The notes beneath the pieces are model-generated. The model did no database searches. It was not told where the DNA came from and saw only the letters and a list, made by a program, of their open reading frames with translations. A program made the translations under genes and the position numbers. Source: a virus (taxonomy: Duplodnaviria; Heunggongvirae; Uroviricota; Caudoviricetes). Taken from it: DNA of 11,702 nucleotides. The stretch is from IMG/VR virus record IMGVR_UViG_2744054854_000004; one strand, written 5' to 3'. Within the stretch, counting starts at the first letter, position 1; every line of letters begins with the position of its first letter. Of this stretch, positions 273-11,005 are shown in pieces.

Positions 273-367
273 AGCCAATAAGCATGATCATCCCCCTGAA
301 TAAAAACCGGAGATGATGCCAGTTAGCCGTTATCTCTGCATTTTCATAAACGTTGGTTTGGGAGAAG
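273..367. repeat. Left copy of a perfect 95-bp inverted repeat (reverse complement of 2095..2189), truncated by the gap
   Basis: Checked base by base: the reverse complement of 273..367 is identical to 2095..2189. It includes an inverted copy of the invertase gene start and upstream region. Confidence 0.9.
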
Positions 368-648
368 GTGCTAACTGGGTTATGTTACCTGGAGGAATGA
401 TAATTCAGCGTGTTTATCTTGGATTTCCTATTGGCACCAATGTAAGACACATAACTTTCCCCCGGTCGTTTACAACAACGAACTATTCCATCTCAATTAA
501 CTGGAATGATATCGGTACTGTAACAACTGAAACACAATCGCCAGCAAATGTGGCGGTTGTTCATCAAACAAAATCATTAACAGGGGCCAGCATCTGGCAG
601 GCAGGTCCCGGAGGATTTAATGTGGACATTATAGCGGTGGGGTATTGA
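313..648 (+). CDS. Tail fibre variable C-terminal segment, cassette A (Mu Sv / P2 gpH C-terminus-like). The ATG at 313 is probably not a real start; the frame is meant to be entered from a constant fibre gene outside the segment
   Basis: ORF crosses the left hix-like site in frame; the first 14 codons lie in the inverted copy of the invertase upstream region. Stop TGA 646..648 is 1 nt before the downstream ATG at 650. Confidence 0.6.
341..366. other. hix/gix/cix-like recombination site (left), 12-2-12 architecture
   Basis: TTTTCATAAACG-TT-GGTTTGGGAGAA: imperfect dyad around a central dinucleotide at 353..354 with the AAACC/GGTTT-type core typical of Hin/Gin/Cin/Pin crossover sites (half-site consensus recalled as TTATCNAAAACC). 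Confidence 0.65.
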
Positions 649-649
649 T

Positions 650-1078
650 ATGTACGTATGGAGCGCTAAAGCAAATGGCTTTTTCCCCATATCGGAGAAA
701 GAAAAATTTGAGGCATCAGGTCTGTGGCCTGATGATGGTGTAATAGTCAGTGAGGAAGAACATAAAAAGTTATTTATGGATATTCCACCAGGAAAACAGA
801 TTGGAACACTGAATGGAAAACCAGCACTGATAGATATTCCTCAGCCGACCAAAAAGGAATTAATAGCTATTGCTGAAGTTAAAAAATCCCAATTACGGGA
901 AAAAGCTGACAGTGAAATATCCTGGCGTCAGGATGCTGTTGATGCTGATATCGCAACTGATGAAGAAACTTCAACTCTCACCGAATGGAAGAAATACCGT
1001 GTGCTGCTGATGCGTGTTGATACTTCAACAGCACCCGATATTGAATGGCCTACGCCTCCGGCAGTTCAGGCCAGATGA
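650..1078 (+). CDS. Tail fibre assembly chaperone, cassette A (Tfa; Mu U / P2 gpG family)
   Basis: 142 aa with the characteristic Tfa C-terminal motif [15 protein letters not shown]; tightly coupled to the upstream fibre segment. Confidence 0.85.
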
Positions 1079-1643
1079 CATCCGGCGCGGTGCTGGTATC
1101 TGTTGCCGTCACCGCGTCAATGTAATCCAGCACAGCGTTAAGCCGGGTTGTTTCTGCCTGCGTCAGTTTCCGCCCGGCCTGTAATTTCAGCTGAATCAGA
1201 CTAATGGAAGCCATTGCTGCATCAATCAGTGACTGGCGCTGTGCTTCTGCCGCTTCTACTGCGGCATCGTGTTGTGCCTCAGTATCTGTCACCCATTTCT
1301 CACCATCCCATTTATCATATGGCGTTAACGGTGAAAGCGTGACATAACCGTCTTTGATGGCACCGATATAATCCACTGTAACAGCTGCGCCATTTTCTGT
1401 TGAGTAAACAGTCTCATTGCGATGGTCTTCTTCATGGCTCCATCCCTTACCCGTGAATACTGCCACTTGCCCCGGAATGTATTCGCCCGGGTCAATACCA
1501 GTGGAACAGGCGGGCATACTTACGCCAGTATTAATATATTCATCAGACCAGCCCGTATATTCAGACGTTACTGCATCATAATAAAAACAACGCATATCGC
1601 CCGGCACTGTAGCCAGTCCATTTTCATCAAAAACAGGTTTCAT
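1050..1643 (-). CDS. Tail fibre assembly chaperone, cassette B (Tfa family), convergent with cassette A
   Basis: 197 aa ending in [17 protein letters not shown]. Its start ATG (1641..1643, minus strand) overlaps the stop TAA of the upstream fibre segment (TAATG). 3' ends of the two tfa genes overlap by 29 bp (1050..1078). Confidence 0.85.
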
Positions 1644-2149
1644 TATGCAGCCCTCACAATATAATTAAAGGCGATGTTACGTGGACGGTTTTCATTAGCT
1701 GTTGGCACGACACGAGAGGCGTCGAATCCAAGGTCATCGGTTTTGCCTATAGCAGTTGTGTTATTCGCCATTGTCGCTGATCGTGTTCCTGCATCGTAAA
1801 AAGCCCCTCTGATTGCATCAAAAGACATGCCGATCCCGCCATCTGCGAATCCCTCAATATTTCTTATTGCATCCCCCTGTGAAGATAATAATTGTCGCCC
1901 GGCATCCACTCCACGTCCGTCATCCCAGCCACGAATAAATTCACCGCGTAAATCAGGCAATTTATTTGTCGGGTAAGCCTTTGCCAGTTCCGGGTATTCT
2001 TCAGCAGAAAAAGCTGCTCCGTTGCATTTTAGCCAGCCTGTTGGCGGAGTGGCTGAGGGCCACGGAACAGGCACACCAACAGGTAATGCAGAGCCTTCTC
2101 CCAAACCAACGTTTATGAAAATGCAGAGATAACGGCTAACTGGCATCAT
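1643..2149 (-). CDS. Tail fibre variable C-terminal segment, cassette B, with a tail-collar-like receptor-binding motif; the annotated start lies outside the crossover site and is probably artefactual
   Basis: Contains GWLKCNGAAFSAEEYPELAKAY...LPDLRGEFIRGW, which matches the phage tail collar domain pattern (C-x-G...YP-L...LPDLRG-F-R). Frame crosses the right hix-like site. Confidence 0.65.
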   Translation of the reverse strand: MMPVSRYLCIFINVGLGEGSALPVGVPVPWPSATPPTGWLKCNGAAFSAEEYPELAKAYPTNKLPDLRGEFIRGWDDGRGVDAGRQLLSSQGDAIRNIEGFADGGIGMSFDAIRGAFYDAGTRSATMANNTTAIGKTDDLGFDASRVVPTANENRPRNIAFNYIVRAA

Positions 2150-2885: not shown

Positions 2886-4058
2886 ATGGCTCAGGATTAC
2901 CACCACGGGGTGCGCGTTGTTGAAGTCAACGAAGGCACCCGATCCATTACCACGGTGAGCACCGCCATCGTGGGTATGGTCTGCACGGGCGATGATGCCG
3001 ATGCAAAAATGTTTCCTCTTAATAAACCCGTGCTGATCACTGATGTGCTGACTGCCAGCGGTAAAGCGGGTGAGTCAGGCACGCTGGCTCGTTCGCTGGA
3101 TGCCATCGCTGACCAGGCAAAACCCGTGACCGTTGTTGTGCGTGTGCCGCAGGGTGAAACGGAAGAAGAAACCACGACCAATATCATCGGAGCAGTGACC
3201 GCTGAAGGTAAAAAAACAGGCATGAAAGCCCTGTTATCTGCCCAGTCACAGCTCGGCGTTAAACCGCGCATTCTCGGCGTGCCAGGCCACGACACCAAGG
3301 CGGTAGCTACTGAGTTGCTGAGCGTGGCGCAAAGCCTGCGTGGGTTTGCTTACCTGTCAGCGTATGGCTGCAAGACAGTGCAGGAGGCGATCACTTACCG
3401 CGAAAACTTCAGCCAGCGCGAAGGGATGCTGATCTGGCCTGACTTTACTTGCTGGGACACGGTGCTGAATGCCGAAGCAACGGCATATGCCACCGCTCGT
3501 GCGCTCGGTCTGCGCGCCAAAATTGATGAGCAGACTGGATGGCACAAAAGCCTGTCCAACGTGGGCGTGAACGGTGTCACCGGAATTTCTGCAGATGTGT
3601 TCTGGGATCTGCAGGACCCGGCAACCGATGCAGGTCTGCTGAACCAGAACGACGTCACCACGCTTGTGCGTAAAGACGGTTTCCGCTTCTGGGGTTCCCG
3701 CTGCCTGAGTGATGACCCGCTCTTTGCCTTCGAAAACTACACCCGCACGGCGCAGGTGCTGATGGACACGATGGCAGAAGCACACATGTGGGCGGTGGAT
3801 AAACCGCTTAACCCGTCGCTGGCCCGCGACATTATCGAAGGTATCCGCGCCAAAATGCGCAGCCTGGTCAGTCAGGGCTATCTCATTGGTGGTGATTGCT
3901 GGCTGGATGAGTCGGTGAACGACAAAGACACGCTGAAAGCCGGAAAACTCACCATCGACTACGACTACACGCCAGTGCCGCCACTTGAAAACCTGATGCT
4001 GCGTCAGCGCATCACCGATCAGTACCTGGTGAATTTCGCCAGCCAGGTCAGCGCGTAA
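2886..4058 (+). CDS. FI: Contractile tail sheath protein (P2 gpFI homolog)
   Basis: 390 aa; strong recalled similarity to P2 FI ([56 protein letters not shown]). Confidence 0.95.
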
Positions 4059-4067
4059 GGGGACAAC

Positions 4068-4583
4068 ATGGCTTTACCACGCAAATTAAAACACCTGAAC
4101 CTGTTTAACGACGGGAACAACTGGCAGGGGATCGTTGAGTCGCTGACGCTGCCGAAATTTACCCGCAAATATGAGAAGTATCGCGGCGGCGGAATGCCGG
4201 GTGCGGTGGATGTGGATCTGGGGCTTGATGACAGTGCGCTGGACACAGAATTTTCCATTGGTGGTACTGAATTGCTGCTGTTTAAACAGATGGGTAAAGC
4301 CACGGTGGATGGCATCCAGCTGCGCTTTACCGGCTCTATTCAGCGTGACGATACCGGGGAAGTGCAGCCCGTGGAGCTTGTCGTGCGTGGACGTCACAAA
4401 GAAGTGGATTCCGGCGAGTGGAAGACGGGCGAAAGCAACACCACCAAAGTGACCAGTACCAACAGCTACGCGAAGCTGACCATCAATGGTGAGGTGCTCT
4501 ATGAAGTGGACCTTATCAACATGGTGGAAATTGTGGACGGTGTGGACCTGATGGAAGCGCACCGCAACGCCCTCGGCCTCTGA
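4068..4583 (+). CDS. FII: Tail tube protein (P2 gpFII homolog)
   Basis: 171 aa; starts 9 nt after the FI stop; P2 FII-like length and motifs (PRKLK, RDDTGE, VVRGR). Confidence 0.93.
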   Translation: MALPRKLKHLNLFNDGNNWQGIVESLTLPKFTRKYEKYRGGGMPGAVDVDLGLDDSALDTEFSIGGTELLLFKQMGKATVDGIQLRFTGSIQRDDTGEVQPVELVVRGRHKEVDSGEWKTGESNTTKVTSTNSYAKLTINGEVLYEVDLINMVEIVDGVDLMEAHRNALGL

Positions 4584-4637
4584 TATATCTGAACGGCGCG
4601 GGATACCGCGCCAGAACCCAATTGACAGGACAGCAAA

Positions 4638-4940
4638 ATGAGCGATAAGCAGACTGAAAAGACCATTCAACTGGATACCCCCATCAAGCGCGGTAAAACA
4701 GAAATCACCGAAATTGTGCTGCGTAAACCGCAGTCCGGTGCGCTGCGCGGTACACGCCTGCAGGCCATTATGGATATGGATGTAAACGCGATGATGACCG
4801 TGATCCCCCGCATCTCCAGTCCGGCACTGACTGCACAGGAAATTGCAGAGATGGACCCGGCAGATCTCACTGCCATGTCGGTTGAGGTTGTCACTTTTTT
4901 GTTGAAGAAGTCGGTGCTTGCCGGTTTACCGACAGCCTGA
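4638..4940 (+). CDS. E: Tail assembly chaperone gpE (zero-frame product)
   Basis: 100-aa ORF in the P2 E position immediately before the tape measure gene; contains the slippery heptamer near its 3' end. Confidence 0.85.
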   Translation: MSDKQTEKTIQLDTPIKRGKTEITEIVLRKPQSGALRGTRLQAIMDMDVNAMMTVIPRISSPALTAQEIAEMDPADLTAMSVEVVTFLLKKSVLAGLPTA

Positions 4941-5074
4941 CGGTTGACGATCTGGTGGCAGATATCGCCACCATTTTTCACTGGCCGCCATCCGTTACTG
5001 ACGTTATGCCGCTGACCGAAGTGCTGGAATGGCGGTATAAAGCGATTCAGAGAAGCGGGGCCAACGATGAGTGA
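4638..5074 (+). CDS. E': gpE+E' fusion made by programmed -1 ribosomal frameshift at T-TTT-TTG (4895..4901)
   Basis: Slippery heptamer is in the X-XXY-YYZ register of the E frame. The -1 frame stays open from 4898 to TGA 5072..5074 (translated by hand: ...FFVEEVGACRFTDSLTVDDLVADIATIFHWPPSVTDVMPLTEVLEWRYKAIQRSGANDE), ending 8 nt into the T gene, as in the P2 E/E' arrangement. Confidence 0.7.
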
Positions 5075-8000
5075 TAACAACCTGCGTCTGCAGGTCATTC
5101 TTAATGCGGTTGACAAGCTCACCCGCCCATTTCGATCTGCGCAGGCCAGTTCAAGAGAACTGGCTGCTGCTGTCAAAAAATCCCGCGATGCAATAAAGCA
5201 GCTTGATCAGGCCGGGAGCAGTCTGGACAGCTTCCGAAAGCTGCAGGCAGAAAATCAGAAATTAGGCGACAGGCTGAACTATGCCCGCCAGCGTGCAAAT
5301 TTGCTCAGTCAGGAACTGGGAGCGATGGGGCCGCCTTCGCAACGTCAGGTTGTTGCTCTGGGCCGTCAACGGCTGGCTGTTCAGCGCCTGGAAGAACGCC
5401 AGAAAAAGCTGCAGCAGCAGACGGCGCTTGTGCGTGCTGAACTGTACCGGGCGGGAATTTCTGCGAAAGACGATGCGGGAGCAACTGCCCGTTTAGCCCG
5501 TGAAACATCACGTTATAACCAGGAACTTTCGAAACAGGAGGCGCGGCTGAAGCGACTGGGGGAAGCTCAGCGCAGGATGAATGCAGCGCGTGCCAGTTAT
5601 GCCAGCTCGCTGGAGGTGCGCGATCGCATCGCAGGAGCCGGAGCCACTACCACGGCTGCAGGGCTGGCAATGGGTGCGCCAGTGATGGCAGCAGTAAAAA
5701 GCTATACCAGCATGGAAGATGCCATGAAAGGTGTGGCAAAGCAGGTCAATGGTCTGCGTGATGATAATGGCAACCGCACTGCGCGTTTTTACGAAATGCA
5801 GGATGCCATCAAGGCTGCCAGCGAACAGTTGCCGATGGAAAACGGTGCTGTGGACTTTGCCGCACTGGTTGAAGGTGGTGCGCGCATGAACGTCGCAAAT
5901 CCTGACGACAGCTGGGAAGACCAGAAACGTGACCTGCTGGCCTTCGCCAGTACGGCAGCAAAGGCTGCAACAGCCTTTGAGCTGCCAGCGGATGAACTGT
6001 CAGAAAGTCTGGGGAAAATCGCCCAGCTCTACAAAATCCCTACCCGCAATATTGAACAGCTCGGTGATGCGCTGAACTATCTGGATGATAACGCCATGTC
6101 GAAAGGGGCAGACATCATTGATGTCATGCAACGTCTGGGCGGTGTGGCTGACCGTCTGGATTATCGTAAAGCGGCGGCGCTGGGTTCCACCTTCCTGACA
6201 CTGGGCGCTGCGCCGGAGGTTGCAGCCAGTGCAGCAAATGCGATGGTGCGTGAATTGTCCATTGCCACCATGCAGAGCAAGAGTTTCTTTGAAGGGATGA
6301 ATCTGCTGAAACTCAATCCTGAAGTGATTGAAAAGCAGATGACGAAGGATGCGATGGGAACTATCCAGCGTGTGCTGGAGAAGGTGAACGCACTGCCGCA
6401 GGATAAGCGTCTGTCTGCCATGACCATGTTGTTTGGTAAAGAGTTTGGAGATGACGCGGCGAAACTGGCAAACAACCTTCCGGAACTGCAGCGCCAGTTA
6501 AAACTGACAGCGGGCAATGATGCGCTCGGTTCCATGCAGAAAGAATCCGACATCAACAAAGACTCACTTTCTGCTCAGTGGTTGCTGGTCAAAACCGGAG
6601 CGCAGAACACCTTCAGCAGCCTGGGCGAAACGCTGCGCCAGCCGCTGATGGATATTCTGTACACGGTGAAAAGCGTCACGGGGGCGTTGCGTCGCTGGGT
6701 GGAAGCTAACCCGGAACTGACAGGCACACTGATGAAAGCGTCGGCCGTTGTGGCTGCGGTTACCGTCGGCCTCGGCACCTTAGCGGTGGCGCTGGCTGCA
6801 GTGCTGGGGCCGCTGGCAGTGATCCGTCTGGGATTCTCTGTGCTGGGTATCAAAACGTTACCTTCCGTTACGGCAGCAGTAACACGAACCAGCAGCGCGT
6901 TGTCCTGGCTGGCTGGCGCTCCACTGGCACTGCTGCGACGCGGGCTTGCTTCATCGGGCAATGCTGCGGGTTTACTTACTGCGCCGTTGTCATCTTTGCG
7001 CCGTACGGCATCACTGACGGGAAATGTCCTGAAAACTGTAGCAGGTGCGCCAGTTGCACTGTTGCGGTCTGGATTATCCGGTTTACGTGCGGTTGCTGTG
7101 ATGTTTATGAATCCACTGGCGGTACTGCGCGGTGGACTGACCGCCGCAGGCGCGGTGCTGCGAGTGCTGGCATCTGGTCCGCTGGCGATGCTGCGCGTTG
7201 CTCTGTATGCCGTATCTGGTCTGTTAGGTGCTCTGCTCAGTCCGATAGGTCTTGTGGTTACTGCACTGGCGGGCGTGGCGCTGGTTGTCTGGAAATACTG
7301 GCAACCCATCACCGCATTTCTCGGTGGCGTGGTGGAAGGATTCAAAGCGGCGGCAGGTCCCGTCAGTGCTGCATTCGAACCACTTAAGCCTGTGTTTCAG
7401 TGGATTGGCGACAAAGTACAGGCGCTGTGGGGCTGGTTTACTGATCTGCTTACGCCCGTTAAGTCGACCTCTGCCGAACTGCAGAGTGCAGCGGCAATGG
7501 GGCGACGATTCGGGGAGGCACTGGCGGAAGGGCTGAATATGGTCATGCATCCGCTGGACTCCCTGAAATCCGGCGTTTCCTGGTTGCTGGAGAAGCTCGG
7601 CATTGTCAGTAAAGAGGCCGCAAAGGCAAAACTGCCGGAAAGCGTGACGCGTCAGCAACCTGCGACGGTGAATGCAGACGGTAAAGTGATGATGCCATCG
7701 GGTGGTTTTCCATCATGGGGATATGGCTTTGCGGGAATGTATGACAGCGGCGGGTATATCCCGCGCGGGCAGTTTGGCATCGTCGGTGAAAACGGGCCGG
7801 AAATTGTTAACGGCCCGGCAAATGTGACCAGCCGGAGAAATACAGCTGCACTGGCTGCCGTTGTTGCCGGAATGATGGGCGTTGCTGCCGCGCCTGCAGA
7901 GCTTCCACCGTTGCACCCTTTGGCACTTCCCGCGAAAGGCGGCGAAGCGATGGTGAGTCGTGCAGCCACTGTGCCGCCCGTTCAACGGATTGAGGCACCG

Positions 8001-8144
8001 ATGCAGATCATCATTCAGACGCAGCCAGGACAAAGTGCGCAGGATATTGCGCGGGAGGTGGCCCGCCAGCTTGATGAACGTGAACGCAGGCTGAAAGCAA
8101 AAGCCAGGAGTAACTACAGCGATCAGGGGGGATACGACGCATGA
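5067..8144 (+). CDS. T: Tail tape measure protein (P2 gpT homolog)
   Basis: 1025 aa; coiled-coil-rich N-terminal third, Ala/Gly/Leu-rich hydrophobic middle with degenerate peptide repeats, position between E/E' and U. Confidence 0.9.
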   Translation: MSDNNLRLQVILNAVDKLTRPFRSAQASSRELAAAVKKSRDAIKQLDQAGSSLDSFRKLQAENQKLGDRLNYARQRANLLSQELGAMGPPSQRQVVALGRQRLAVQRLEERQKKLQQQTALVRAELYRAGISAKDDAGATARLARETSRYNQELSKQEARLKRLGEAQRRMNAARASYASSLEVRDRIAGAGATTTAAGLAMGAPVMAAVKSYTSMEDAMKGVAKQVNGLRDDNGNRTARFYEMQDAIKAASEQLPMENGAVDFAALVEGGARMNVANPDDSWEDQKRDLLAFASTAAKAATAFELPADELSESLGKIAQLYKIPTRNIEQLGDALNYLDDNAMSKGADIIDVMQRLGGVADRLDYRKAAALGSTFLTLGAAPEVAASAANAMVRELSIATMQSKSFFEGMNLLKLNPEVIEKQMTKDAMGTIQRVLEKVNALPQDKRLSAMTMLFGKEFGDDAAKLANNLPELQRQLKLTAGNDALGSMQKESDINKDSLSAQWLLVKTGAQNTFSSLGETLRQPLMDILYTVKSVTGALRRWVEANPELTGTLMKASAVVAAVTVGLGTLAVALAAVLGPLAVIRLGFSVLGIKTLPSVTAAVTRTSSALSWLAGAPLALLRRGLASSGNAAGLLTAPLSSLRRTASLTGNVLKTVAGAPVALLRSGLSGLRAVAVMFMNPLAVLRGGLTAAGAVLRVLASGPLAMLRVALYAVSGLLGALLSPIGLVVTALAGVALVVWKYWQPITAFLGGVVEGFKAAAGPVSAAFEPLKPVFQWIGDKVQALWGWFTDLLTPVKSTSAELQSAAAMGRRFGEALAEGLNMVMHPLDSLKSGVSWLLEKLGIVSKEAAKAKLPESVTRQQPATVNADGKVMMPSGGFPSWGYGFAGMYDSGGYIPRGQFGIVGENGPEIVNGPANVTSRRNTAALAAVVAGMMGVAAAPAELPPLHPLALPAKGGEAMVSRAATVPPVQRIEAPMQIIIQTQPGQSAQDIAREVARQLDERERRLKAKARSNYSDQGGYDA

Positions 8145-8626
8145 TGATGGTGCTGGGATTGTACGTGTTTATGCTGCGCACCGTGCCGTATCAGGAGCTG
8201 CAGTATCAACGCAGCTGGCGACATGCGGCAAACAGCCGGGTAAACCGACGTCCGTCCACGCAGTTTCTGGGACCGGACAACGACATGCTGACGCTTTCCG
8301 GTGTTCTTATGCCGGAGATAACAGGTGGCAGGCTGTCGTTGCTGGCACTGGAGCAGATGGCAGAACAGGGGAAAGCATGGCCCCTGATTGAAGGCAGCGG
8401 CACGATTTATGGCATGTATGTGATTGAGGGACTGAATCAGACTAAAACGGAGTTTTTCCGCGACGGTATGCCGCGCCGGATTGAGTTCACCCTGTCGCTC
8501 AAACGGGTGGATGAATCCCTGTCCGATATGTTCGGTGATCTCAGTGCGCAACTGAATAATCTGCAGGAAACGGCAACGTCTGCCTTAAGCGATATCAGTA
8601 AAACGGTGGGAGGGCTGCTGTCGTGA
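8141..8626 (+). CDS. U: Tail protein gpU homolog
   Basis: 161 aa; start overlaps the T stop (ATGA at 8141..8144); P2 U-like size and position. Confidence 0.88.
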   Translation: MMMVLGLYVFMLRTVPYQELQYQRSWRHAANSRVNRRPSTQFLGPDNDMLTLSGVLMPEITGGRLSLLALEQMAEQGKAWPLIEGSGTIYGMYVIEGLNQTKTEFFRDGMPRRIEFTLSLKRVDESLSDMFGDLSAQLNNLQETATSALSDISKTVGGLLS

Positions 8627-9723
8627 ATTTCAGCTCTGAACTGCTTAACAAAGGCAACAAAACTCCCGCATTCAGCATCAGTATTGAGGGCAGGGATATC
8701 ACCACTGTGCTGGATAACCGCCTGATGAGTTTGACGCTGACGGATAACCGGGGCTTTGAAGCGGACCAGCTTGATCTGGAGCTGGATGACGCTGACGGAA
8801 AAATCGTGCTGCCGCGCCGTGGTGCGGTCATTACGCTGGCGCTGGGCTGGAAGGGGCAGCCGCTTTTCCCTAAAGGGGCATTCACAGTGGACGAGATTGA
8901 ACACACTGGCGCACCGGACCGCCTGACTATCCGGGCGCGAAGTGCTGATTTTCGGGAAACGCTGAATACCCGCCGTGAAAAATCGTGGCATAAGACCACC
9001 GTCGGGGAAGTGGTGAAGGAAATAGCCGCGCGGCACAAGCTGAAGATGGCACTGGGTAAAGACCTGTCGGATAAGCCCGTGGAGCATATAGACCAGACTA
9101 ATGAGAGTGACGGCAGTTTTCTGATGCGGCTGGCGCGACAGTACGGTGCCATCGCGTCGGTGAAAAATGGCAATCTGTTATTCATCCGGCAGGGGCAGGG
9201 CAAAAGCGCCACTGGTAAACCTCTGCCAGTGATCACTATCACACGCAAGGACGGCGACAGTCACCGATTTACCCTGGCAGATCGCGGAGCCTACACGGGC
9301 GTAATTGCCAGCTGGTTGCATACCCGCGAACCTGCGAAGAAAGAAAGCACCACGGTGAAGCGTAAGCGCAGAACTAAGAAGCAGAAGAAAGAGCCAGAAG
9401 CGAAGCAGGGCGATTACCTGGTGGGTACGGATGAAAACGTGCTGGTACTTAATCGCACTTATGCCAACCGGAGCAACGCCGAACGAGCGGCGAAAATGCA
9501 GTGGGAACGCCTGCAACGCGGCGTTGCGTCATTTTCGCTACAACTGGCAGAAGGGCGGGCAGATCTCTACACGGAAATGCCTGTGAAGGTCAGTGGTTTT
9601 AAACAGCCGATAGATGATGCGGAATGGACCATTACGACTCTGACACATACCGTCAGCCCGGATAACGGTTTTACAACCAGTATTGAACTCGAAGTGAAGA
9701 TTGATGATCTTGAAATGGAATAA
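8623..9723 (+). CDS. D: Tail protein gpD homolog (late gene D)
   Basis: 366 aa; GTG start overlapping the U stop (GTGA 8623..8626); last gene of the P2 tail operon before ogr. Contains a Lys/Arg-rich stretch (KRKRRTKKQKKEPEAK). Confidence 0.88.
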   Translation: MNFSSELLNKGNKTPAFSISIEGRDITTVLDNRLMSLTLTDNRGFEADQLDLELDDADGKIVLPRRGAVITLALGWKGQPLFPKGAFTVDEIEHTGAPDRLTIRARSADFRETLNTRREKSWHKTTVGEVVKEIAARHKLKMALGKDLSDKPVEHIDQTNESDGSFLMRLARQYGAIASVKNGNLLFIRQGQGKSATGKPLPVITITRKDGDSHRFTLADRGAYTGVIASWLHTREPAKKESTTVKRKRRTKKQKKEPEAKQGDYLVGTDENVLVLNRTYANRSNAERAAKMQWERLQRGVASFSLQLAEGRADLYTEMPVKVSGFKQPIDDAEWTITTLTHTVSPDNGFTTSIELEVKIDDLEME

Positions 9724-9736
9724 AGCGTTCTCAATA

Positions 9737-9764
9737 TTGATATTTTGTGTATCATTACAATAAT
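9737..9764 (+). promoter_or_regulatory. Putative sigma70 promoter for ogr
   Basis: -35 TTGATA 9737..9742, 16-bp spacer, -10 AATAAT 9759..9764, in the AT-rich D-ogr intergenic region. Confidence 0.35.
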
Positions 9765-9791
9765 TCTGATAGCAAAGGTAGGGATCTGGAT

Positions 9792-10010
9792 ATGATGAAT
9801 TGTCCAAAGTGTGGTCATGCGGCACACACAAGGAGCAGTTTTCAAGTAACTGAAAGCACCAAAGAGCGTTACTGCCAGTGCCAAAATATTAACTGCGGGA
9901 GCACTTTTGTTACCCATGAAACAGTGGTCCGGTTTATTGTGACACCCGCACTGATTGCTACTGCTCCTCCACATCCATTGCCAGGTGGTCAGGGGCATAT
10001 GAATTTTTGA
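9792..10010 (+). CDS. ogr: Ogr/Delta-family zinc-finger late gene transcriptional activator
   Basis: 72 aa from the ATG at 9792: MMNCPKCGHAAHTRSS...TKERYCQCQNINCGSTF...HPLPGGQ closely matches recalled P2 Ogr (MFHCPLCQHAAHARTS...TKERYHQCQNVNCSATF...HPLPSGQ), with the four Cys at the same positions. The longer ORF from 9747 would start inside the putative promoter. Confidence 0.88.
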   Translation: MMNCPKCGHAAHTRSSFQVTESTKERYCQCQNINCGSTFVTHETVVRFIVTPALIATAPPHPLPGGQGHMNF

Positions 10011-10018
10011 GAAAGAGA

Positions 10019-10040
10019 ACCTGCTACGGCAGGTTTTTAT
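10019..10040. terminator. Bidirectional rho-independent terminator between convergent ogr and the cargo gene
   Basis: Stem CCTGC (10020..10024), loop TACG, stem GCAGG (10029..10033), followed by TTTTTATT on the plus strand and by TTCTCTTTC on the minus strand; 9 nt after the ogr stop and directly abutting the cargo gene stop (TAA 10037..10039). Confidence 0.7.
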
Positions 10041-10519
10041 TCATCTGGGATCTCACCCGTTTCAAGAAAATGTATAAAGCCAGGCTCATCTATGATGATT
10101 GTGCCTTTCATCCTGGCTGCCGATACTTTTGATGGGCCTGCATTGTAACCGCAACAGAGCATCTGAAGGCTTTGGGTTACAGAGGTTCTTACCGTTAATC
10201 CTTGTTCATTCGCCTTATCAACCAATCTTTCTTTATCTGCTTTCTTAAATCCGGTGAAACACACATCGAATGTATTTTTTTTCGGACCAGACTGCTTAGT
10301 GAGATGTGAGTAGTTTTCGGGGAGGAATGATGTGCATTCCTGAATGGCTTGTTCTGGTGAATCGTACTGTTTAAGAATGCGGTCTTTTCGGAAGGTTTTT
10401 ATTCGATCGGTGTTCTTACAAATGCCCTGTATATGATTTTCGCTATAACTGATGCTCTGTATAGAGTGAACACCGATACGACCATTTGCATTGATGTAAA
10501 CAAAGTGAAGTTCTTCCAT
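10037..10519 (-). CDS. Hypothetical 160-aa cargo (moron) protein: N-terminal WYL-like domain plus C-terminal BRCT-like domain; function unknown
   Basis: Strong SD AAGAGG 6 nt before the ATG (10517..10519); uninterrupted ORF. Visibly AT-richer than the flanking tail genes (by eye, not computed). Residues about 85..158 (CFTGFKKADKERLVDKANEQGLTVRTSVTQSLQMLCCGYNAGPSKVSAARMKGTIIIDEPGFIHFL) align by eye to the LigA-type BRCT pattern. Residues about 5..47 (FVYINANGRIGVHSIQSISYSENHIQGICKNTDRIKTFRKDRIL) fit the WYL-domain pattern ending in R-x-F-R-x-D-R-I. Confidence 0.75.
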   Translation of the reverse strand: MEELHFVYINANGRIGVHSIQSISYSENHIQGICKNTDRIKTFRKDRILKQYDSPEQAIQECTSFLPENYSHLTKQSGPKKNTFDVCFTGFKKADKERLVDKANEQGLTVRTSVTQSLQMLCCGYNAGPSKVSAARMKGTIIIDEPGFIHFLETGEIPDE

Positions 10520-10642: not shown

Positions 10643-11005
10643 TGGTGGAGCTGGCGGGAGTTGAACCCGCGTCCGAAATTCCTACATCCTCGGTACTACA
10701 TGCTTAGTCAGTCTTTACATTCGCTTGCCAGCTGCGGACGGACACGCCACTAACAAACTAGCCTGATTAAGTTTTAACGCTTCAACCCCAGGCAGGGCTT
10801 CCACGCGATCTCTTTTGGGTTTGACCTCTCTTGATCCCCGTTCTAAGAGCGGAGGCTAGGGAGAGAGGGCTCTAAGCAGGTTATTAAGCTGCTAAAGCGT
10901 AGTTTTCGTCGTTTGCGACTATTTTTTGCGGCTTTTTACGAGGCCAACCGCCCCTCGGCATGCACCTTGGGTTTCGCAAATCCCGTCGAATCCAGAATCA
11001 GCCCC
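10643..11005 (-). ncRNA. ssrA: tmRNA (SsrA, 10Sa RNA), mature 363-nt form
   Basis: Reverse complement reads GGGGCUGAUUCUGGAUUCGACGGG...CGGGUUCAACUCCCGCCAGCUCCACCA, matching E. coli tmRNA as recalled. Tag reading frame GCA AAC GAC GAA AAC UAC GCU UUA GCA GCU UAA (ANDENYALAA) at 10884..10916 on the minus strand. Confidence 0.97.

Follow-up and report, generated by a model that had tools for sequence, protein, structure and literature searches.

A DNA invertase gene beside a short segment bounded by two inverted recombination sites, in the tail region of a prophage, raises the question of whether the segment is a switch of the tail fibre, and of which orientation is represented in the DNA at hand. 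The window considered here (the whole stretch of DNA that was analysed, 11,702 nucleotides) matches part of scaffold LWDC01000001.1 (assembly GCA_001640145.1; L009, L022) at 100% identity, and its smpB-ssrA end displays 99.9% identity to E. coli. The region is very probably a two-state inversion switch of the Gin/Pin type, by which a P2-like prophage located at ssrA in E. coli would change its tail fibre. The general context of the switch is given by the following features:

1–172: rrn P1/P2 promoter, by our own reading of the letters; downstream of gmhB according to the gene context of the scaffold
173–272: scaffold gap of exactly 100 N
2886–10010, + strand: P2-type tail module with FI, FII, E/E′, T, U, D and ogr
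2886–4058: FI (sheath), directly after the invertase in the gene order
10643–11005: ssrA tmRNA, the 3′ end of which is the prophage end

The first 172 bases come from another contig of the same scaffold and are unrelated to the switch. The contig that contains all the switch-relevant DNA has its first base at position 273. Concerning the tail module, its gene order FI-FII-E/E′-T-U-D-ogr is P2-like and is accompanied by the matching protein families: sheath, tube and Ogr_Delta were found as Pfam matches in the window genes, and TAC_7, GpE, PhageMin_Tail, GpU and GPD are precomputed assignments to the same genes in the source scaffold. On the 3′ side of ogr there is a 160-aa ORF with a BRCT domain, followed by the 3′ end of ssrA and then by smpB. 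The stretch from the invertase to ssrA was present, at a coverage of at least 80%, in 858 of the 5,426 complete E. coli genomes. From the segment onwards the contig is free of breaks, passing through the invertase and smpB into unique host DNA. The source assembly was also searched for a second identical tail module; the tape-measure protein was found as a single copy, so there is no identical second module in that assembly. The window contains only the tail half of the prophage, which may therefore be defective.

The recombinase and its presumed accessory element are located just outside the segment:

2177–2743, + strand: Gin/Pin-type DNA invertase of 188 aa, with a serine recombinase catalytic domain and a C-terminal HTH_7
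2198–2262: presumed Fis-dependent recombinational enhancer, assigned from the homologous position of the Hin and Gin enhancers and from the alignment with Mu gin

The invertase matched the Pfam families Resolvase (PF00239, 2.3e-53, residues 5–137) and HTH_7 (PF02796, 5.8e-16, residues 140–183), as well as the structures 3uj3 and 4m6f of Mu Gin (~1e-92). Its identity is 76% to Mu Gin, in an ungapped alignment of 183 aa, and 86% to a PinE-type invertase. Ser9 is kept in MLIGYVRVSTNDQ (the N-terminal YVRVST motif), and the wild-type Met114 is present. The size of about 190 aa, the domains, the catalytic serine, the identities and the paired 26-bp inverted sites are all those of the Hin/Gin/Cin/Pin subfamily.

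With respect to the enhancer, that of Hin measures 65 bp, at a distance of some 100 bp from hix (PMC3798978). The distance of the element presumed here, counted from the middle of the right hix, is 89–154 bp. When this invertase and two relatives were compared with Mu gin, no excess of synonymous-site conservation was observed in codons 8–29 (13 of 27 codons identical versus 0.42 overall). From the position and the alignment, we infer that the enhancer would be located in the 5′ part of the invertase gene.

The recombination sites, and the DNA found on the outer side of the left one, are as follows:

273–340: mirror copy, in reverse complement, of the DNA just upstream of the invertase and of the start of its gene, at the contig edge
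341–366, + strand: left hix-type site, TTTTCATAAACG-TT-GGTTTGGGAGAA, with the core TT at 353–354
2096–2121, + strand: right hix-type site, with the inner half TTCTCCCAAACC, the core AA at 2108–2109 and the outer half CGTTTATGAAAA

The original prediction had described two hix-like sites of 26 bp bracketing the segment. Both are real: a search with the Hin/Gin-type degenerate pattern, allowing up to 3 mismatches, recovered just these two sites in the window, against 0.01–0.04 expected from shuffled sequence. They are mutually inverted, each shows an imperfect dyad symmetry, and their core dinucleotides are complementary. The possibility of a chance inverted repeat was ruled out by the rarity of the site pattern (0.01–0.04 expected). 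The number of sites is also what decides about a multi-site, shufflon-like system, which would have more than two states and of which Min of p15B and the three-repeat type of EPEC P2-like prophages are examples. Multi-site versions do occur in P2-like prophages (PMC4272514), but the window holds only two hix-type sites at 3 mismatches or fewer and only two cassettes. So, this alternative was rejected, its probability being practically negligible.

What had to be corrected is the extent of the repeat. The exact inverted repeat is not 26 nt but 96 nt long (273–368 / 2094–2189, 100% identity). On the inner side its end coincides with that of the hix sites, and on the outer side it extends to the contig's first base, the 96 nt being made up of 68 nt of flank and 28 nt common to both cassettes. 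The stretch 273–340 is not the end of a fibre gene. It repeats, in reverse complement, the DNA upstream of the invertase itself, and it takes in the first 13 nt of the invertase gene (from 2177), or 19 nt if these are counted from the in-frame ATG at 2171.

The halves of the sites can be assigned to sides by comparison with relatives. The inner half of the left hix, GGTTTGGGAGAA, encodes G-L-G-E-G, the end of the shared fibre sequence, and its outer half, TTTTCATAAACG, is of the invertase-side type. In complete relatives with an identical invertase protein, the site on the fibre side reads TTCTCRCATACC / TTCTC(A/G)CATACC TT GGTTTGGGAGAA, and it is preceded by the end of the constant region of the fibre gene H (...DVAGLLAYLG-). 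A site identical to the right hix is found by the identical invertase in L012, L013, L015, L016, L018, L020 and L021, and also in L019, there one base later (3921).

Between the two sites there are four genes in two convergent pairs:

313–648, + strand: cassette a fibre tip, Pfam Gp53-like_C (PF21882, 1.2e-5), phrog_2557 and phrog_1396
650–1078, + strand: cassette a Tfa chaperone of 142 aa, Pfam Caudo_TAP (1e-33), phrog_188 (1e-54)
1050–1643, − strand: cassette b Tfa chaperone of 197 aa, Pfam Caudo_TAP (3.9e-28), phrog_105 (2.7e-85)
1643–2149, − strand: cassette b fibre tip, Pfam Collar (1.3e-15), phrog_523 (6.9e-80)

That each convergent cassette consists of a fibre tip with its own Tfa chaperone, as anticipated, was borne out by the Pfam domains (Gp53-like_C, Collar and Caudo_TAP) and by the close coupling of the genes. 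In cassette a, the ATG of the chaperone lies 1 nt past the stop codon of the tip (TGA-n-ATG). In cassette b, the start of the chaperone overlaps the stop codon of the tip (TAATG). The 3′ ends of the two tfa genes overlap by 29 nt. A change that could inactivate the system, either a frameshift or a stop, was sought in the invertase, the sites and both cassettes, and none was found. It is worth recalling that inactivating mutations in pin or in the crossover sites had been proposed as evidence against a switch; on checking, both the invertase and the sites were intact.

The tip of cassette a has a variable C-terminal part of about 93 aa, starting from 367. Its first 19 codons are a read-through of hix and of the invertase flank. 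The tip ORFs of both cassettes begin with the same 19 residues because both read through hix into the invertase flank, which provides an ATG. This gp53-like tip is rare, as it was found in 87 of the 5,426 complete genomes. It gave zero matches in a tblastn search of 50,697 phage records and no significant match in a sequence search of solved structures (PDB), the best E value being 0.1. The G+C content of cassette a is about 41%, versus about 57% for the tail genes, which fits a mosaic acquisition of the gp53-like cassette.

The tip of cassette b has a variable part of 149 aa (1646–2092) with the tail-collar domain. It is 96.6% identical to a fibre of phage SKA5 and, in the sequence search of solved structures, it matched PDB entries 9cuy and 2xgf. 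This collar tip is common; short tail fibres and the collar region of T4 gp37 are among its relatives. An exact-protein look-up gave no record for the 168-aa collar ORF, because the gene is called one codon shorter. The search of solved structures by sequence gave zero matches for the 197-aa Tfa. As assembled, the tip of cassette b is parked beside the invertase, which is the silent position. The tip domains of the two cassettes (Gp53-like_C versus Collar) are unrelated and, judging from their sequences, this fits tips that may bind different receptors.

Evidence for inversion comes from the relatives. The complete ones (L002, L004, L012–L021 and phage pro483) share the order gpJ-gpI-H(constant)-hix-segment-hix-invertase-FI, and the homology among relatives stops exactly at the hix sites. 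A 500-nt sequence was built for each of the four possible junctions, and the complete E. coli genomes (5,426) containing at least 80% of it were counted, with the following results: 5 for H|gp53, 397 for H|collar, 82 for invertase|gp53 and 961 for invertase|collar. Each tip is thus found in the expressed position and in the parked one. The comparison of L015 with L013 illustrates the point, since their flanks are collinear while the interior is inverted between the hix sites, the gp53/tfa cassette being 98.4% identical. The same pair of cassettes occurs at 99% identity in strain GF8. In the P2-like prophage L008, the product of the cassette a tip is found as an identical 111-aa ORF beside the invertase, with H on the far side. 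In e14-like elements (L001), the segment occurs at 99% identity with the gp53-like tip beside pinE, and the match ends inside the right hix. The mirror-flank junction of the window sits within continuous contigs in both L008 and L001, and both orientations of the segment are represented among the relatives.

A clonal pair of opposite orientations was sought among the CUVET dog and hospital isolates. The single discordant genome there, L010, has a noisy consensus in the segment, with 96.5% identity and 92 gaps versus its sisters. This is compatible with mixed reads, although it does not amount to a clean case. Co-existing orientations of e14 and of P2-like prophages have been detected from read pairs, and confirmed by PCR, in cultures of EPEC (Goldberg et al., PMC4272514).

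The proposal of a Gin/Pin-type switch with two tip-plus-chaperone cassettes in a P2-family tail region is in good agreement with the domains, the anatomy of the sites and the relatives. It is supported that the switch works as those of Mu G, P1 C and e14 P.

Concerning the position of the segment, it had been placed, together with its invertase, between the fibre gene and FI. The second half of this statement is directly seen, as the invertase is followed by FI. The first half is not supported by the window, which has neither the constant fibre gene nor the hix half-site of the fibre side, and the left flank of which mirrors that of the invertase. The end of the contig accounts for the missing fibre gene. 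When the constant end of H from L002 was joined to either tip, both constructed fusions were open and in frame. Natural H::gp53 and H::collar fusions exist in other genomes, and in L002 it is the cassette a tip that is fused to H.

The chemistry is established for this subfamily of recombinases (PMC3798978): an invertasome is formed with Fis and the enhancer, double-strand cleavage takes place at a 2-bp core, and subunit rotation is followed by religation. The corresponding course of events at this locus would be as follows. The invertase (2177–2743) would bind both 26-bp hix sites, and host Fis, bound to the enhancer in the 5′ part of the invertase's own gene, would assist the reaction. Both sites would be cut at the central dinucleotide, one pair of half-sites would be turned by 180 degrees, and the ends would be religated. 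The crossover would take place inside the fibre reading frame, just 5′ of the G-L-G-E-G codons. The constant N-terminal part of H would lie outside the segment, off this contig, and inversion would join it either to the gp53-like tip, with its own Tfa, or to the collar tip, with the other Tfa. The cassette facing the invertase would be promoterless and silent. Along with the role of the enhancer, we infer this expression logic, a switch of receptor and the occurrence of flipping in this strain.

The state of the segment as assembled is a separate matter. The left junction, of the invertase flank with the gp53-like tip, is the one of the flipped state; the right junction, of the invertase with the collar tip, is the one of the unflipped state. 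The left hix as assembled is the hybrid expected after inversion. A single molecule with only one invertase cannot hold both junctions, so they belong to opposite orientations. From the structure of the contig, the most likely interpretation is that the culture used for sequencing was a mixture of the two orientations, which the assembler left unresolved. The 96-nt overlap would fit a de Bruijn overlap of k−1 if k was 97, and this reading requires that invertase|gp53 k-mers were present in the reads.

A different interpretation is that the mirror flank is real, and that the segment came to lie between two invertase genes after hix recombination with a second P2-like or e14-like element. This would imply a large chromosomal rearrangement, after which neither tip would still be joined to a constant fibre gene and the switch would be orphaned. 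There are precedents: the complete genome of strain bR_120_Kylling (L003) has an invertase and FI to D on either side of the segment, with flanks that come from two different P2-like prophages, and L014 joins the invertase-side half-site to a foreign half-site beside iroB/iroC. These two arrangements mean that inter-locus hix recombination happens. However, the flanks of the window are 100% identical over 96 nt, whereas those of L003 differ there at 3–4 positions and an e14-type flank differs much more than these. The unbroken course of the contig through the invertase to smpB and on, and an end located exactly 68 nt past hix, which resembles an assembler overlap, also speak against a second invertase, and the single copy of the tape-measure protein in the assembly weakens it further. 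A real mirror flank, with the orphaned switch that it entails, is thus considered unlikely. If it were true, it would mean that prophage invertases of the Gin/Pin type drive large chromosomal rearrangements, orphaning or re-wiring fibre tips.

The contig end could also be an assembly artefact, derived from a fold-back or a chimeric read, in a frozen relic whose parts look intact and whose segment no longer inverts, the prophage being defective or the invertase unexpressed. Draft assemblies do yield fold-back ends at inverted repeats, and the presence of only the tail half of the prophage in the window goes in the same direction. Nevertheless, a 28-bp repeat is shorter than the usual k-mers and reads, and it should break an assembly only if both junctions are in the data. 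Moreover, the invertase, the sites and both cassettes are free of inactivating changes, and related P2-like prophages flip in culture (PMC4272514). A frozen relic seems, on balance, very improbable, and the presence of both orientations in the culture is preferred.

The mixed end of the contig has a practical meaning. Short-read assemblies are interrupted at invertible segments, and the contig ends that result mix the two orientations. Such ends give rise to false "long perfect inverted repeats" and to spurious small ORFs that start in the invertase flank. Recognising this pattern guards against over-interpretation and provides a cheap sign that a culture is heterogeneous for the switch.

Fibre switches of the Gin/Pin type have been textbook knowledge since Mu, P1 and e14. 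The system described here is itself already known, as classified phages and hundreds of E. coli prophages of known sequence carry the P2-like version, for which flipping has been measured. Escherichia phage pro483 (NC_028943) has the same gene order, H - tfa - tfa(rev) - tip(rev) - DNA invertase - tail sheath. With respect to the P2-like (Peduoviridae) phages and prophages, including pro483 and those of EPEC E2348/69, only the pairing of the tips is different here. The public assembly collection lists the identical invertase protein in 4,440 blocks. The P2 fibre/FI hotspot, where an invertase has been noted, is recognised as being frequently occupied by the P2-like version of the switch (bioRxiv 10.1101/2024.10.15.618418).

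The P segment of e14 of E. coli K-12, with PinE, is alike in its invertase, given the 86% identity to the PinE type. The e14-like elements carry the same segment (99% identity) beside pinE, in the opposite orientation relative to the invertase. The difference is in the element, which has Mu-like baseplate genes in the case of e14 and a P2-type contractile-tail module at ssrA in the present one. The G segment of Mu, with Gin, shares the design with a constant part (Sc), the crossover within the fibre gene, the convergent Sv-U and U′-Sv′ pairs and an invertase placed directly beside the segment; there is 76% identity between the two invertases, and the half-sites resemble each other. On the other hand, the G segment is about 3 kb long and has other tips, whereas the segment studied here is 1.78 kb long and the constant part of the fibre is of the P2 H type. 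Among the more distant systems, Salmonella Hin switches a promoter and not a fibre tip, p15B Min has six sites, and the P1 C segment has 0.6-kb repeats. What P1 C with Cin, p15B Min and Salmonella Hin have in common with the present locus is the invertase subfamily and the 26-bp design of the sites, and their dependence on Fis and an enhancer is presumed here as well (PMC3798978).

The two fibre tip and chaperone cassettes enclosed by the 26-bp hix-type sites run towards each other, and their convergent tfa genes overlap at the 3′ ends by 29 nt (window 1050-1078). The conserved C-terminus of the chaperone is encoded on both strands. The same overlap is present in three related loci (L001, L002 and L003). 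Both cassettes can be read as ORFs with an identical 19-residue start (window 313-369 and 2093-2149), this shared N-terminus being the product of reading through the hix site and the upstream flank of the invertase. The read-through cassette ORFs are probably not expressed proteins. In public genomes, ORFs of this kind are labelled 'hypothetical protein', 'gp53-like domain-containing protein' or 'phage tail protein'.

In the closest relatives (L004, 4042-5463, and L005, 4044-5349) the RefSeq annotation breaks up fibre gene H: one piece is called a 'pseudogene missing its C-terminus', and the others are further partial CDSs. The H ORF of L004 is intact, with 473 codons, and automatic annotation is therefore unreliable at mosaic fibre genes of this kind.

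A possible trace of mixed orientation was found in the comparison of two assemblies of one clone:

L010 versus L011, about 3.022-3.024 Mb: CUVET23-RF4 and its sister CUVET23-CCU12

The long-read assembly of L010 displays a noisy, indel-rich consensus that is limited to the invertible segment, where it partially matches L011 in the inverted orientation. Such a consensus would be expected of a polisher given reads of both orientations.

Another related locus contains two invertases:

L003, NZ_CP182374.1 2230564-2245267: strain bR_120_Kylling, complete genome

Each side of its invertible segment is occupied by an invertase followed by FI-FII-E-T-U-D, the two sets coming from different P2-like prophages. 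The hix sites of the two prophages seem to have recombined, inverting the intervening chromosome.

Two features lie at the left end of the window and one near ssrA:

1-172: rrn P1/P2 promoter region, downstream of gmhB in the source scaffold
173-272: scaffold gap of exactly 100 N
10037-10519 (-): 160-aa BRCT-domain ORF, flanked by ogr and by the prophage's attachment end at ssrA

Since the gap separates the promoter from the prophage, their neighbourhood is artificial. For the BRCT-domain ORF, phrog_2561 (annotated as 'DNA ligase') gave a match at 3.6e-77, and PDC-S48, a candidate defence family of PADLOC, a weak one at 1.8e-7; the ORF may be cargo of a P2 hotspot.

A hybrid hix site was found in a further relative, L014 (GCA_051903955.1, CP192515.1 3029529-3038095), and four more places are similar to it:

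L014 3920-3945: hybrid site, TTCTTGAAAACC-AA-CGTTTATGAAAA

The site precedes an identical invertase and tail module, and to its left iroB/iroC-like genes take the place of the fibre cassettes. We take the foreign half-site to be that of Salmonella hixL, which adjoins iroB. The leftmost 660 nt of L014 had no match among complete E. coli genomes. This suggests recombination, within a Salmonella genome, of the flagellar hixL with the hix site of a P2-like prophage.
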